Below the pieces are notes generated by a model. It made no database searches and was not told where the DNA came from. It saw only the letters and a program-made list of their open reading frames with translations. Of a stretch of DNA of 45,695 bases, positions 6,187-45,695 are shown piece by piece; the first letter of the stretch is position 1, and each line of letters starts with the position of its first letter. The position numbers were made by a program, and so were the translations under genes. The DNA is from a virus: IMG/VR virus record IMGVR_UViG_3300045988_144013; one strand, 5' to 3'.

Positions 6187-7110
6187 ATGAATACTGGGTT
6201 TATTGCTTTACATCGAAAATTGTTAGATAGTCCGATTTGGCAGGTTACGACAGTTGAGCAAAAGGTAATTTTAATCACTCTGCTTTTAATGGCAAATCAC
6301 AGTGAAAAAAAGTGGTATTGGCAGGGAGAAGAATTTATTTGCCAACCGGGACAATTTATAACCAGCTTGCCTAATATCGTAAAAGCTTGCGGAAATGGAC
6401 TAACAGTCCAAAATGTAAGGACTGCGTTAAAAAAGTTTGAAAATATGAATTTTTTAACAGACCAATCAACAAAGACTGGAAGGCTGATAACTATAGTAAA
6501 CTGGCAGGTTTATCAAGGAAAAAGGGAAGTCGATAACAGACAACCTAACAGTCAGCTAATAGACGGTCAACAGACACCTAACAGACAACCTAACAGTCAG
6601 CTAACATCTAACAATAATGATAATAATATAACAATGATAAACAATGATAATAATAATAACGCGCGCGCATGCGAGCAAACCAAAAATAGATTAGAGGTTA
6701 ACGAAAAAGAAAAAGGTTTTGAATTATTTTGGGAATTATATCCGTCGAAAAGGAAAAAGCCTGTTGCAAGAATAGCATGGATGAATATGCGTGTACACTC
6801 TGAAGAACAGTATGCATTGATTAATGCTGCTGTTGAGCGATACAAAAAAACTAATCAGTGGCAGGAGGAGAACGGAAGGTACATACCTGATCCTGATACT
6901 TTTTTGCAGGATGAACGTTGGACGGATGAAATCAAATTGTCTGAAGCAGTGCAAGCTGCTGACAGGGAAGCACAAGAGAAAGACGAATGGATTGCAAAAA
7001 ATAAGGAGCGCTGGGCAGCGATACCTCCAGAGAAAAGAAAATACAGACTGGCTTGTTTTATGGGGCTGGACTGGGAGGAAGTGAGGGATATGCCGTATGT
7101 TGGAACTTAG
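6187..7110 (+). CDS. Replication initiator / replisome organizer (winged-helix N-terminus, DnaD-like C-terminus)
   Basis: N-terminus FIALHRKLLDSPIWQ...GQFITSLPNI...VQNVRTALKKFENMNFL. Low-complexity linker that contains DNA iterons. Confidence 0.7.
   Translation: MNTGFIALHRKLLDSPIWQVTTVEQKVILITLLLMANHSEKKWYWQGEEFICQPGQFITSLPNIVKACGNGLTVQNVRTALKKFENMNFLTDQSTKTGRLITIVNWQVYQGKREVDNRQPNSQLIDGQQTPNRQPNSQLTSNNNDNNITMINNDNNNNARACEQTKNRLEVNEKEKGFELFWELYPSKRKKPVARIAWMNMRVHSEEQYALINAAVERYKKTNQWQEENGRYIPDPDTFLQDERWTDEIKLSEAVQAADREAQEKDEWIAKNKERWAAIPPEKRKYRLACFMGLDWEEVRDMPYVGT
6534..6604 (+). repeat. Two perfect 26-bp direct repeats, 45 bp apart, inside the initiator gene; candidate origin iterons
   Basis: TAACAGACAACCTAACAGTCAGCTAA at 6534-6559 and 6579-6604, with a partial copy between them. 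Followed by a 55-bp A/T-rich run and then GCGCGCGC. Confidence 0.55.
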
Positions 7111-7747
7111 AGAGATAACGGCAGCGTATGAAGTGTGGCAGGCGGCGGGATTAAAGCCAAACTGGGGAAGCGAAGATGCAAAAAAAACTATCGAAAGGCA
7201 AACCCTGGAGCGTTATAAATACACAGACATTGAGATGTGGGGCGATACTGTTGATTATATCGCTGATAATAATAAATATTGGCCAACATGGGCAGATATT
7301 AATAATACTTTATCAATCCTACGACAAAATAAAATTGGTGCAGAGAAGAAGGCTATTGAGCGTAATTCTAAAGCGGCAAATGAGTTTGTGAAGAAGCTAT
7401 TTGCTGATCTTGCTGCCGGTAAAACATTTGGCGAACTACGGCAGCCAGTGAGCGATAAAGTTAGAGCTGCAGCAAAGAGGATTTTTCCTGATGCCGACGA
7501 TAGCTTTATAAAGCGTAATTACAACGATATCAGCTTTATCGCAGACGTCGAACGAAAATGTGCTGAATGTATTAACACTGTTGATTGCCCATACAGCGGA
7601 CATCAACCGTTTTTGAGAGTAGACGAAGAAAGCGGATTTACTTATGTGGTAGCTGATCGTGAACGGTGTTATAAATATCATCCGTTAGTGCCTGATGTAG
7701 TACCAAAACGGTCAGCATGTCGTCAAGGTGATTTAGCTAAAGTTTAA
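7097..7747 (+). CDS. Hypothetical replication-module protein (possible helicase-loader-like)
   Basis: 216 aa. Overlaps the initiator stop. No Walker motif. Cys cluster CAECINTVDCPYSGH. Confidence 0.4.
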   Translation: MLELREITAAYEVWQAAGLKPNWGSEDAKKTIERQTLERYKYTDIEMWGDTVDYIADNNKYWPTWADINNTLSILRQNKIGAEKKAIERNSKAANEFVKKLFADLAAGKTFGELRQPVSDKVRAAAKRIFPDADDSFIKRNYNDISFIADVERKCAECINTVDCPYSGHQPFLRVDEESGFTYVVADRERCYKYHPLVPDVVPKRSACRQGDLAKV

Positions 7748-7760
7748 AGGAGCGGTAACT

Positions 7761-8285
7761 ATGAAAATAAGTGCAGAAAAATTACAGGAGATTATAGAAA
7801 GTCACGGCAGATGGTTGCGAAACGAAGAAGGAGGGGAACGTGCAAACCTCCGCAGTGCAGACCTCAGCAGTGCAGACCTCAGCGGTGCAGACCTCAGCGG
7901 TGCAGATCTCAGCGGTGCAGACCTCCGCAGTGCAGACCTCAGCAGTGCAGACCTCTACTGTGCAGACCTCAGCAGTGCAGATCTCAGCGGTGCAGACCTC
8001 CGCAGTGCAGACCTCCGCAGTGCAGACCTCCGCAGTGCAGACCTCGACAAAACATATTATCAAGTTGTTAGAGTTGGTAGTCGCCGAGGAATAACTACTT
8101 ATTGCGTAGATGACGACAATGTTCTATGCGGATGTTGGAATGGCTTCAAAGGTGGTACGCTAGACGAATTTAAAACTCGTGTAGAGAGTGTATACGGACG
8201 TGAAGGTAATAATCCTAACGAGCAATATTACGATGAGTATATGGCGGCAATCACATTCTTTGCGGCAATGAAGGAGATGAAATAA
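7761..8285 (+). CDS. Pentapeptide-repeat protein
   Basis: About 14 consecutive A(D/N)LxS/G pentapeptides (ADLSS/ADLSG/ADLRS), then an 85-aa Cys-containing C-terminal domain. Confidence 0.85.
   Translation: MKISAEKLQEIIESHGRWLRNEEGGERANLRSADLSSADLSGADLSGADLSGADLRSADLSSADLYCADLSSADLSGADLRSADLRSADLRSADLDKTYYQVVRVGSRRGITTYCVDDDNVLCGCWNGFKGGTLDEFKTRVESVYGREGNNPNEQYYDEYMAAITFFAAMKEMK
7841..8046 (+). repeat. 15-bp tandem repeat, about 13.7 copies (TGCAGACCTCMGCRG)
   Basis: Read directly. Units differ at only 1-3 positions. In frame, 3 pentapeptides per 45 bp. Confidence 0.95.
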
Positions 8286-8626
8286 TGAAAATTAAAGCAA
8301 CAACACCATGTTATAAATTCAGGGACGCAACACCGGAAGAGCAGATTGCAAAAATCAAAGAAGAACTGGCTGAGGTAGAAGCTGCTTACACAGAGTTTAA
8401 AAAAGTGTTGGCAGAAGATAAGCTGCTGGCGTTGATGATGGAGATTATCGACGTTAAGGCTTGCTGTAACACGTTTGTTTACCAGCTGCGGAAGAATCAT
8501 GCTTTGGCGTTTTTGGCTTATGCCAAAGCTAAGCGAGAAGTCATAAATAAAAATCTTGCAAGAGGGTACTACTTTACACCAGAAGATATTGACAAGCTGA
8601 ACACTAATAAGTCAGAACCGTTTTGA
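8285..8626 (+). CDS. MazG-like nucleotide pyrophosphohydrolase (tentative)
   Basis: KEELAEVEAA and MEIIDV resemble the MazG EExxE / ExxD metal-binding motifs. Confidence 0.4.
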   Translation: MKIKATTPCYKFRDATPEEQIAKIKEELAEVEAAYTEFKKVLAEDKLLALMMEIIDVKACCNTFVYQLRKNHALAFLAYAKAKREVINKNLARGYYFTPEDIDKLNTNKSEPF

Positions 8627-8653: not shown

Positions 8654-9421
8654 ATGAAAATAAAGACAGAATTTTATTGTGATAATTTTCAAAATTTTAA
8701 ACGGTATGGGATTCCCAAGGCACAGTTAGTAATTGCGGATATACCGTACAACCTTGGAGCAAATGCTTACGGATCTAATCCAATGTGGTATGTAGATGGC
8801 GATAATAAAAAAGGTGAAAGCAAATTTGCAGGTAAAGCTTTTTTCAATACAGATCATAATTTTAACATTGCAGAATACTTTCATTTTTGTAATCGCTTAT
8901 TAAAAAAAGAGCCTAAAGAAAAAGGGAAAGCTCCGTGCATGATAGTTTTTTGCTCATTTGAACAAATGCCGATGGTAATTCAGTATGCAGAAAAACATGG
9001 GTTTAAAAAACACATTCCTTTAATTTTCATCAAAAACTTTTCAGCACAGGTATTAAAAGCAAATATGCGTGTTGTTGGTGCTACTGAATACGCTTTGGTG
9101 TTATACAGGGAAAAACTACCGAAATTTAATAATAATGGAAAAATGATTTTTAATTGGTTTAACTGGGTAAAGGATACAAAAACATATCCTAAAATACATC
9201 CGACACAAAAGCCAGTTAATTTGTTGAAGCAGTTAATAACAATCTTTACAGACCCAAGTGACGTGGTTATAGATCCAGTAGCAGGGAGTGGGACAACATT
9301 AAGAGCGGCTATGGAATTAGGTAGAAACAGTTATGGATTTGAGTTATCTAAGGAGTTTTACAATAAAGCTAAAACCGAAATGCTCAAGCCGCAGAAATTT
9401 GAACAATTAGTTTGTTTTTAG
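8654..9421 (+). CDS. Orphan DNA methyltransferase (N6-adenine or N4-cytosine, beta class)
   Basis: Motif IV ADIPYN lies before motif I VIDPVAGSGTT. HPTQKP motif present. No adjacent restriction endonuclease. Confidence 0.85.
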   Translation: MKIKTEFYCDNFQNFKRYGIPKAQLVIADIPYNLGANAYGSNPMWYVDGDNKKGESKFAGKAFFNTDHNFNIAEYFHFCNRLLKKEPKEKGKAPCMIVFCSFEQMPMVIQYAEKHGFKKHIPLIFIKNFSAQVLKANMRVVGATEYALVLYREKLPKFNNNGKMIFNWFNWVKDTKTYPKIHPTQKPVNLLKQLITIFTDPSDVVIDPVAGSGTTLRAAMELGRNSYGFELSKEFYNKAKTEMLKPQKFEQLVCF

Positions 9422-13424: not shown

Positions 13425-13868
13425 ATGCTAATAGAACAGTATATTAAGCATGTAGAGCGGTACTTTTGGGATCGTAAGCAAATACAAAAAGTTGTTGATG
13501 AAGAAAAAGAGCAACGTACTGCAAGGAAAGGGCATACGGGCGGTGGGGGTCATGCTTTTATTAGTAATCCAACAGAAACAGCAGCATTAAAAAACATTGA
13601 GCCAGTACGTATGATATCGTTTGGATATGGACCATATCAGTCGATAATAATGAACCCGGAGCTATGGCTTGAAGTTGTCGCAGAAACCTATAAGATACAT
13701 GAGAATCAGCTTACTGGTAAAGTTATGTATCAAAAATATGAAAAAAGGAAGCCGATGAAAATAATTGCAGAATTAACCGGCGTAAATAGAGATACCTGTT
13801 ATGAATTTCGTAAGGAGTTTCTCCGAGATGCTGTTGGTTTGGCATTGAAAAAAGGTTTGATAAAATAA
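13425..13868 (+). CDS. Late-gene transcriptional regulator (RinA/ArpU-like, sigma-region-4-like C-terminus)
   Basis: Last gene before the packaging module. C-terminal HTH IIAELTGVNRDTCYEFRKEF. The late-promoter motif begins 6 bp after its stop. Confidence 0.6.
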   Translation: MLIEQYIKHVERYFWDRKQIQKVVDEEKEQRTARKGHTGGGGHAFISNPTETAALKNIEPVRMISFGYGPYQSIIMNPELWLEVVAETYKIHENQLTGKVMYQKYEKRKPMKIIAELTGVNRDTCYEFRKEFLRDAVGLALKKGLIK

Positions 13869-13873
13869 AAAAG

Positions 13874-13912
13874 TTTCCGACATATTACCTGTTTTGATGA
13901 GTTAAAATAGTA
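13874..13912 (+). promoter_or_regulatory. Late-promoter motif, copy A: TTTCCGACA-N16-GAGTTAAAATAGTA
   Basis: Same bipartite motif with identical 16-nt spacing at 37021 and 37112. Confidence 0.6.
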
Positions 13913-14151
13913 TTGTAAGTAAGTGGGCTTACAACAAAGCCCGTGTAGCTCAGACCACGGGTACGGCATAGATGGGGAACACCTATCCACGCTTAAAGGT
14001 GCGTGTGTTGTTTGGGTAATCCGGCAACTGCTCGACCCTGCCGTTGGGGTGATACAGCGGCATATTTAATCTACATAAATAATTTAGCCTTAAAAAGCCG
14101 ATAAAACACGGTAATATATATCAGAATTTAGCATATAGAATAAGAGGTGTG

Positions 14152-36823: not shown

Positions 36824-37016
36824 AGTGCGGAAATCATTTAGGGAGCTGTTGAACAAATTGTCTCCGGCGCAGCTTGAAGAAGTAGCAGCCATAGCATATG
36901 AGATAAAGAAAGAACGTGAATCGTCGTCGAAGGTAGTTCGGTTTATGGATAAGTCCAGCCAGCGTTGTTATGATCAGGGGTATAAGCTTGGTCTGATGTT
37001 AGGAAATAAATTTTAA
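36816..37016 (+). CDS. Hypothetical protein
   Basis: 66-aa ORF overlapping the upstream stop. Confidence 0.45.
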   Translation: MNKVRKSFRELLNKLSPAQLEEVAAIAYEIKKERESSSKVVRFMDKSSQRCYDQGYKLGLMLGNKF

Positions 37017-37020
37017 AAAG

Positions 37021-37059
37021 TTTCCGACAAAATGCCATTTAACAAGAGTTAAAATAGTA
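37021..37059 (+). promoter_or_regulatory. Late-promoter motif, copy B
   Basis: TTTCCGACA-N16-GAGTTAAAATAGTA, both boxes identical to copy A. Confidence 0.6.
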
Positions 37060-37111
37060 ATGTAAGGTTATTGGATATGAGAGCAGAGGCGGTGTTAAAA
37101 AATTAAAAATG

Positions 37112-37150
37112 TATCCGACAAAACCACTATAAAAATGAGTTAAAATAGTA
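37112..37150 (+). promoter_or_regulatory. Late-promoter motif, copy C
   Basis: TATCCGACA-N16-GAGTTAAAATAGTA, 91 bp downstream of copy B. Confidence 0.6.
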
Positions 37151-37178
37151 TCATAAAGTTAGTTAGAACTTAATAGAA

Positions 37179-45640: not shown

Positions 45641-45695
45641 ATTCTTCTGGAATTGGCTATAATTGTTTCATTAAATAGCACTTTATGATATAATA
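45641..45695 (+). repeat. Terminal direct repeat, right copy
   Basis: Bases 45641-45695 are identical to 1-55. Confidence 0.95.

Follow-up and report, generated by a model that had tools for sequence, protein, structure and literature searches.

A pentapeptide-repeat gene with a homogenised, length-variable 15-bp array and a conserved C-terminal domain in the early region of a temperate phage

Pentapeptide-repeat proteins are common in the early regions of phage genomes and almost wholly unstudied. One of them is encoded in the IMG/VR virus record IMGVR_UViG_3300045988_144013, of which the whole stretch of 45,695 nucleotides (nt) was analyzed and is termed the window below. The gene is an open reading frame at 7761-8285 on the + strand, which yields a protein of 174 amino acids (aa) with repeats that are nearly identical to each other at the DNA level. 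The locus raises two questions, namely whether such an array gains and loses units in frame, and what a protein built in this manner may do for the phage.

The homogenised array

Tandem Repeats Finder reported one array at 7840-8045, with a period of 15, 13.7 copies, 90% matches, no indels and a score of 307, which is by far the strongest repeat of the window. Both the consensus TGCAGACCTCMGCRG and the copy number of approximately 13.7, which had been proposed for a near-perfect array in an earlier note on this DNA, were recovered. The same note counted about 14 A-D-L-x-x pentapeptides, and we found 14 A(D/N)LXX units in frame with a match to Pfam PF00805 (E 3e-22; 78.2 bits against a cut-off of 20.2). 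The parts of the gene are as follows.

7746..7752, + strand: Shine-Dalgarno-like AAAGGAG read from the sequence, 8 nt before the ATG and overlapping the stop codon of the upstream gene
7761..7841, + strand: N-terminal cap, aa 1-27 (MKISAEKLQEIIESHGRWLRNEEGGER), with a helix predicted at residues 5-19 by AlphaFold2 (AF2) at low confidence
7842..8051, + strand: 14 pentapeptide units in the protein register, aa 28-97, about 3.5 coils of a predicted right-handed quadrilateral beta-helix
8046..8282, + strand: C-terminal domain, aa 96-174, beta-beta-beta-alpha-alpha in the AF2 model, with the motifs IGSR, CGCW, GGTLxEF and YxEYxAAIxFF
8283..8285, + strand: stop codon TAA, overlapping the ATG of the next gene at 8285 (TAATG)

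The units are arranged in the order ANLRS ADLSS ADLSG ADLSG ADLSG ADLRS ADLSS ADLYC ADLSS ADLSG ADLRS ADLRS ADLRS ADLDK. In the AF2 model, residues 28-97 received block means of 75-86 in the predicted local distance difference test (pLDDT), and Foldseek matched the model to 6omx, 3n90 and 2bm4 with a probability of 1.0 and root-mean-square deviations (rmsd) of 0.5-1.2 A (1.2 A over 71 columns for 6omx, and 0.5 A over 63 columns for MfpA, 2bm4). On the Pfam score and the modelled right-handed quadrilateral beta-helix, we regard the protein as a member of the pentapeptide-repeat family with a predicted repeated five-residue (Rfr) fold. Three other open frames extend over the array, at 7782-8063 (-), 7811-8071 (+) and 7840-8094 (+), and are by-products of a stop-free periodic sequence.

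The codons of the array are strikingly uniform. Leu is encoded 14 times out of 14 by CTC, which the phage uses least of all its Leu codons (4.8% of 900), and all of the Ala codons are GCA; if codons were drawn independently under the phage's own usage, the chance of 14 consecutive CTC would be about 3e-19. Furthermore, the G+C content of the array is 63% against 39.6% for the genome. Because of the uniform CTC and GCA codons and the G+C content, we conclude that the units are related by descent at the DNA level, beyond what constraint on the protein alone would produce. No copy of the repeat unit was found in the window outside 7795-8090, and a six-frame scan of the window for arrays with at least four A[DN]L units and for the profile of the C-terminal domain returned this gene only. 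A target of a diversity-generating retroelement was considered and rejected, as there is no second (template) copy of the repeat, albeit no search aimed at a reverse transcriptase was made.

We then compared 241 units, drawn from 15 different arrays within the close clade. In the unit of 15 nucleotides, eleven positions were invariant, and variation was confined to positions 4 (G/A/T, giving D/N/Y), 10 (A/C, giving S/R), and 13 and 14 (G/A, giving G/S/D). Third codon positions differed in only 4 of 1,205 cases, and 17 of the 20 unit types are combinations of D/N/Y, S/R and G/S/D. In the Rfr fold, as represented by the structures of MfpA and Np275/276, residues 1 and 3 of a unit face inward and the other three face outward. 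Given this geometry, all four of the variable nucleotide positions alter outward-facing residues and the inward Ala and Leu are frozen; the core is thus constant, and the exposed positions are mixed combinatorially.

The earlier note also held that homogenisation at the DNA level is atypical of pentapeptide-repeat proteins. We applied the same search patterns, which bias both samples to ADLSG-like sequences, to phage contigs and to one genome per bacterial species, and obtained 78 IMG/VR phage loci and 80 bacterial loci. The median identity between units was 0.85 in the phage arrays against 0.55 in the bacterial arrays, and the contrast was sharper at synonymous third positions, of which the median identity within arrays was 0.97 (10th percentile 0.92) and 0.54, respectively. 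Thus, the statement holds for pentapeptide-repeat proteins in general and for the bacterial ones, but not for those of phages, in which homogenisation is the norm. Homogenised arrays recur in phages with G+C contents of 31-71%. The scan of bacterial genomes yielded generic pentapeptide-repeat proteins, mostly cyanobacterial and from soil bacteria, with no close relative of the protein studied here, and served as a baseline only.

Array length among close relatives

More than 500 phage stretches in IMG/VR encode relatives of the protein. Relatives with flanks of 95-100% identity carry from 2 to 31 units, the largest numbers being reached in orthologs with flanks of 95-96% identity. The in-frame expansion and contraction that the earlier note had expected is therefore seen between related genomes. 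The window has 14 units and two relatives (L001/L002) have 16, with the 315 flanking coding nt 100% identical; relatives with flanks that are 93-98% identical (L003-L014) carry 10, 11, 12, 13, 17, 22, 26, 29 or 31 units. The nucleotide identity of the N-terminal cap is 100% to the former and 95-97% to the latter. Altogether, the N-terminal 27 aa and the C-terminal 77 aa are almost unchanged among the closest relatives, and the arrays between them are very different. Over 8.4 kb, one relative (L084) shares 99.0% identity with the window and nevertheless carries 16 units, and another (L090) shows 3 mismatches in 1,766 nt downstream of the gene, yet has 2.

The same pattern was obtained from proteins. 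A search with the C-terminal part against 5.8 billion proteins gave 347 clusters, and the proteins with a 100% identical C-terminal domain had lengths of 114, 129, 134, 139, 159 and so on to 214 aa, differing in steps of exactly five residues. Proteins sharing the identical end domains are labelled Phascolarctobacterium faecium by the National Center for Biotechnology Information (NCBI). We retrieved 50 proteins of this length ladder, all of which were full length, and 29 full-length alleles with identical N- and C-terminal parts ranged from 2 to 22 units. Single contiguous indels of units or changes of one unit link 22 of the 29 alleles; for instance, the allele of the window equals P0012 with two ADLSG units added, and P0021 equals P0024 with one ADLRS removed. 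Cultured phages display this as well. Of the Rheinheimera phages Barba5A and Barba35A, one has exactly one ADLSG unit more than the other, this unit being one of three identical copies, and the 600 nt to either side contain 0 and 2 mismatches. Two features of an intragenic variable number of tandem repeats (VNTR), near-identical head-to-tail DNA units and polymorphism in unit number between near-identical genomes, are both present.

Copy numbers of this gene in short-read assemblies are not trustworthy unless checked, and a rival account of the length differences would be that assemblers collapsed or expanded a tandem repeat. Of the 34 closest IMG/VR contigs, seven end within the array, and the lengths of single alleles may be in error. 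For gene 24_60 of Vibrio cholerae phage 24, the authors re-sequenced the repeat by PCR (polymerase chain reaction) and Sanger sequencing (bioRxiv 10.1101/2024.07.02.601686). The GenBank copy of 24_60 has 8 units and the published residue numbers would imply at least 19, and the array in the public record has probably been collapsed, which the methods of the authors also suggest. Nevertheless, we consider it very improbable that such errors explain the differences described above. The longest internal repeat of the gene in the window is 41 nt, below k = 55 (the overlap of the contig is 55 nt), and identical non-modal alleles recur over samples and assemblers. The two-unit allele was recovered from two different samples by two assemblers, one of which we take to be a k=31 assembler, and our reasoning is that the latter cannot join unit 1 to the last unit unless real reads do so. 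Finally, alleles differ in the order of units, which collapse cannot produce, and the one-unit difference between Barba5A and Barba35A is found in cultured isolates.

Length is not variable everywhere. In a sister lineage represented by four IMG/VR contigs of 45-66 kb (L016-L019), all four have 13 units despite differing unit sequences. A homogenised array thus does not entail variable length in every lineage.

As the array positions in this fixed-length lineage can be compared one to one, we computed there the ratio of non-synonymous to synonymous differences (pN/pS). The ratio for the array was 1.9-12 among L016-L018 and about 0.8-1.1 against L019, and those for the end domains in the lineage were 0.08-0.22 (N-terminal cap) and 0.29-0.54 (C-terminal domain). 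We take these values to reflect a reshuffling of old unit types in the arrays, the diversity of units being maintained, and regard them as suggestive, though not proof, of selection on the surface. We do not claim positive selection from the array ratios above 1, since the shuffling of pre-existing unit types gives the same signal.

The conserved C-terminal domain and the neighbouring genes

Within the family, conservation lies in the C-terminal domain rather than in the solenoid. Modelled alone (79 aa), the domain received a pLDDT of 96 and a predicted template-modelling score (pTM) of 0.85, with three strands and two helices. Residues 96-174 were searched against 1.84 billion representatives, and 179 clusters were found, in which the domain is always C-terminal in proteins of 56-391 aa. 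Degenerate pentapeptide repeats are the usual region upstream of it; some proteins have bactofilin- or hexapeptide-like repeats there and others have no such region, the domain occurring alone in proteins of 74-97 aa. The conserved motifs are IGSR, CGC(W/F), G(G)TLxEF and YxEYxAAIxFF. The motif of the N-terminal cap, L..I...H..WL....G.RA.L, is also recurrent among phage pentapeptide-repeat proteins.

No relative of the domain was found in Pfam, NCBIfam or PADLOC. The best match of its profile to PDB sequences was a coiled helix (E 0.12), and Foldseek returned no match of its fold in PDB (best E 0.7, TM 0.33). On the other hand, in BFVD the domain ends phage proteins annotated as pentapeptide, hexapeptide, 'polymer-forming cytoskeletal' and 'beta solenoid' (TM 0.6-0.78), and in Listeria phage LWP01 it follows a degenerate, non-repetitive pentapeptide region (sequence E 8e-6). 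The domain is a phage-specific module, which is also attached to solenoids of the pentapeptide, hexapeptide and bactofilin-like types. For its role, the binding of a target or dimerisation suggest themselves.

The gene belongs to a temperate tailed phage, which encodes an integrase, a large terminase, a portal-like connector, a major head protein and tail proteins. The contig is circularly closed (45.6 kb); bases 1-55 equal 45641-45695, and this exact 55-nt terminal duplication is most simply the k-mer overlap of a circular assembly. The same phage was found integrated in contigs of up to 1.03 Mb (L087). The commonest allele of the gene (184 aa), which was identical in 242 collection blocks, lies on contigs of up to this size and is therefore carried by a prophage; an allele of 199 aa was found in 26 collection blocks. 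No near-identical DNA to the window was detected in GenBank phages, and the nearest genome record (G001, a 22.5-kb fragment) is without the repeat gene.

The earlier note placed the gene in an early region next to MazG-like and methyltransferase genes. The gene indeed sits in an early module for replication and recombination. The rightward block before it encodes a Rad52/exonuclease-like annealing protein, a NinB/Orf-like protein, an HNH endonuclease, a DnaD-like initiator and a 216-aa protein, and the genes after it encode a 113-aa protein, an N6/N4 DNA methyltransferase, a DUF1064-type resolvase and an MmcB-like protein. The genes closest to it are listed below.

7097..7747, + strand: gene for the 216-aa protein, beside the repeat gene throughout the close clade; stop codon at 7745-7747
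8285..8626, + strand: gene for the 113-aa protein, translationally coupled to the repeat gene and kept with it in the close clade only
8654..9421, + strand: gene for an orphan N6/N4 DNA methyltransferase, a variable neighbour that is replaced by C5 methylases or absent in relatives

A DNA methyltransferase is thus present downstream, as the note had it. The MazG-like neighbour was not borne out: the product of 8285-8626, coupled to the repeat gene via TAATG, matched neither MazG nor any other entry in PHROGs, Pfam, NCBIfam or PDB sequences. In the lineage with the 199-aa allele (L092-L095), a 69-aa gene takes the place of the 113-aa gene.

Upstream of the repeat gene, the 216-aa protein occurs in variants that are about 78% and about 96% identical. 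For six loci (L001, L085, L086, L089, L090 and L092), BLAST homology to the window begins exactly at 7322, inside the gene for this protein, which suggests a mosaic recombination junction near 7322, with the 3' part of this gene travelling as one segment with the genes for the repeat protein and the 113-aa protein. Elsewhere in the window, a 63-nt motif containing GTTTCCGACA ... GAGTTAAAATAGTA occurs in three copies (13861-13923, 37008-37070 and 37099-37161) that are 71-75% identical. The copies resemble promoters or regulatory sites that are repeated before blocks of late genes.

Possible functions and comparison with known systems

We tentatively favour, chiefly by analogy, a role of the product as a dispensable host-interaction or counter-defence protein, most likely a binder or decoy that would blunt abortive-infection or nuclease-type defence. 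The early protein of the temperate phage comprises three parts, a capping helix, the 14-unit beta-helix and the 79-aa C-terminal domain. The homogenised 15-bp array gains and loses whole units, presumably by replication slippage or unequal recombination, and unit types appear to be reshuffled within it, so that near-identical phages differ in the length of the solenoid and in the exposed D/N/Y, S/R and G/S/D residues, with the inward Ala and Leu, the codons and both end domains staying fixed. The C-terminal domain would supply a constant activity by binding a target or by dimerisation, and the solenoid may supply a rapidly diversifying surface and spacer. The related pentapeptide gene of the Barba phages appears to be absent and dispensable in 2 of the 115 isolates, H99 (MT497273.1) and H100 (MK719750.1), which match the flanks of the gene region only (29% of the query). 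The analogy comes from phage 24, which escapes the RexAB-like abortive-infection system Sucellos via Y112R and N115D in 24_60, and becomes far more sensitive to Sucellos when 24_60 is deleted; 24_60 is the probable anti-Sucellos factor (bioRxiv 10.1101/2024.07.02.601686). The spacing of N110, Y112 and N115 would fit ANLYG-AN, and the substituted residues would then occupy the same outward positions as those that vary in the family studied here.

Several points weigh against a counter-defence role. The protein had no match in PADLOC, albeit no search of an anti-defence catalogue was made, and no conserved partner gene accompanies the repeat gene beyond the close clade. Homology to 24_60 is not established: hhalign of the two C-terminal domains gave a probability of 16.5% (P 0.0015, 44 columns). 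One allele is common to hundreds of samples, and the array is therefore not hypermutable over short periods; such wide sharing argues for a moderate rate of length change rather than an extreme one. Furthermore, the non-synonymous excess in the array can come from shuffled old unit types. Finally, any length from 2 to 31 units seems to be tolerated, not only multiples of the four units per coil, and this tolerance is as compatible with a neutral spacer as with an adaptive one.

The neutral alternative assumes that the C-terminal domain and the N-terminal helix do the work, and that the solenoid is a tolerated linker or bulk, which would drift in length and surface for no other reason than the mechanical instability of a homogenised 15-bp array, its variation being without adaptive meaning. 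Besides array lengths that are not multiples of four units, this account can draw on the alleles of 2-7 units (fewer than two coils), which have been retained with their end domains intact and were found again in independent samples, and on the occurrence of the same C-terminal domain behind unrelated solenoid types, behind the degenerate and non-repetitive pentapeptide region of Listeria phage LWP01, and alone in proteins of 74-97 aa. Drift accounts less readily for heterogeneity at exactly three exposed residues with the synonymous sites frozen, or for a pN/pS of the array above that of the end domains. In addition, changes at like positions were selected experimentally in Vibrio phage 24 (bioRxiv 10.1101/2024.07.02.601686), and homogenised arrays recur in phages over a G+C range of 31-71%, which suggests that such a design is favoured in itself. 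Thus, we rank the counter-defence or host-interaction role first, with the analogy as its ground and only as a tentative preference, and the neutral spacer second, as a rather unlikely account that nonetheless deserves serious weight.

The earlier note pointed to a more specific activity, in which the protein, like Qnr or MfpA, would imitate B-DNA and thereby bind gyrase, topoisomerase or host nucleases. The beta-helix does superpose on MfpA, QnrB1 and AlbG, the allele of the window is acidic (array charge -8, isoelectric point of the protein 4.55), and the gene is located among replication and recombination genes; DNA-like decoys would also suit a sensor such as RexA. However, the scores against the NCBIfam models are 27-37 bits against 240-480 overall (27.3 against 240 for Qnr, 33.4 against 360 for MfpA and 31.8 against 460 for QnrB), far below the cut-offs. 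Among alleles with identical end domains, the array charge ranges from +1 to -14, with some long arrays being neutral, and alleles of 2-7 units are too short for a DNA-like rod. A different globular domain also stands where MfpA and Qnr have a C-terminal dimerisation helix. This evidence strongly lowers the case that the protein is a Qnr, and only moderately the case that it mimics DNA; mimicry of the Qnr/MfpA type by the protein is improbable in our estimate. Of the proposal in the note, an anti-defence role in the broad sense thus stays plausible by analogy, but mimicry of this type is not supported.

The array could also act as DNA, with coding being secondary, that is, as protein-binding iterons, a recombination hot spot or a Chi-like cluster. 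It adjoins the genes for replication initiators, and the ADLSG units contain AGCGG, which we take to be the Chi pentamer of Bacillus subtilis and which is over-represented and strand-biased in the window. On the contrary, the array holds just 4 of the 82 AGCGG sites, for which we rejected a Chi cluster as the main explanation. The array is read in one frame with two conserved protein domains, its exposed residues vary but never its inward Ala and Leu, and the arrays of other phages encode the same peptide with different codons. We hence give a role as DNA scarcely any credence. As for AGCGG in the window as a whole, the 82 sites compare with 55 +/- 6.5 expected (61 on the + strand and 21 on the - strand), and the skew could be Chi-like or simply a coding-strand bias.

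The kind of protein, a pentapeptide-repeat protein, is known; what is new is the DNA-homogenised, length-variable array combined with an uncharacterised conserved C-terminal domain. In its widest form, the proposal would be that homogenised 15-bp arrays are a built-in diversity generator for a counter-defence protein and that the C-terminal domain is the common effector of phage proteins composed of a solenoid and a head, which we regard as doubtful at present. If this were true, the gain, loss and shuffling of units would keep giving rise to beta-helices with a new length and with new D/N/Y-S/R-G/S/D patterns on the surface, variants able to bind or evade polymorphic immune sensors of the host would already be present in a phage population, and a structurally novel domain would serve a large unrecognised class of phage proteins. 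The domain appears to be the constant partner of many different phage solenoid scaffolds and, as a confidently folding unit of 79 aa without a solved relative, offers a concrete target for structural and binding studies. The locus itself is a clean natural data set, in which one gut prophage lineage holds dozens of alleles differing only in unit number and in three exposed residues per unit; these can be used to test if the length and surface of the solenoid tune the interaction between phage and host, and the array may serve as a strain marker for the prophages.

Full-text searches of the literature retrieved no paper dealing with variable copy number or with homogenised arrays of DNA in the pentapeptide-repeat genes of phages, and the Sucellos preprint was the only functional report on this class of phage protein in the searchable literature. 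The protein described there is the nearest counterpart. In GenBank, 24_60 (SBVc24_0060, KJ572844.2, 12900-13322; L176) is a protein of 140 aa with an N-terminal helix, eight ANLRG-type units with a nucleotide identity of 0.86, and a C-terminal domain of 77 aa, and its gene follows two methyltransferase genes. It is thus similar to the protein of the window in being an early gene beside DNA methyltransferases, with an N-terminal helix, a homogenised A(N/D)L(R/Y)G array and a C-terminal domain of approximately 77 aa that bears a GC motif at the matching place. The columns aligned by hhalign centre on the shared V-x-[AC]-G-C ... T-[IL]-E-E-[FW] motif, albeit no sequence homology between the two proteins was detectable outside the repeats; for the domain of the Barba phages, the hhalign probability was 1.2%. 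The two proteins differ in that 24_60 belongs to another type of phage with a gamma-proteobacterial host, and the function has been tested for 24_60 only.

Qnr, MfpA, AlbG, McbG and EfsQnr share the right-handed quadrilateral beta-helix with the protein (local superposition at 0.5-1.6 A over 63-69 columns). The types that act on topoisomerases have degenerate repeats of fixed length, dimerise through a C-terminal helix and bear a conserved acidic surface. In contrast, the protein studied here has a homogenised and variable array, a globular C-terminal domain and a variable charge, and fails the curated family models. Nostoc Np275/Np276, Alr5209, HetL and the synthetic solenoid beta1 (PDB 4yc5) comprise near-consensus A(D/N)LSG units as this protein does, and designed beta1 is its best match among PDB sequences (E 2e-47). 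The length variants of beta1 in PDB (3beta1 and beta1_ex1/6beta1), judged by their entry names, suggest that idealised arrays fold at more than one length. These consensus-type Rfr proteins are, however, cellular or designed, and are without the phage context, such a C-terminal domain or a length ladder in a population.

Among phage proteins, those of the Bacillus phages phiAGATE (L0LC68) and Bp8p-T (A0A0A0PQW0) and of Listeria phage LWP01 (AQY52622.1) end in the same beta-beta-beta-alpha-alpha domain. Their solenoids differ from the one studied here, as they consist of hexapeptide, bactofilin-like or degenerate pentapeptide repeats without a homogenised tandem array at the DNA level. The behaviour of the array itself resembles that of bacterial contingency loci and intragenic VNTRs, such as the repeat tract of tolA (PMC3477136), in which whole units are likewise gained and lost in frame between close genomes. 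Unlike those loci, the array of the window lies in an early gene of a phage, involves no on/off switching, and also recombines three exposed residues per unit.

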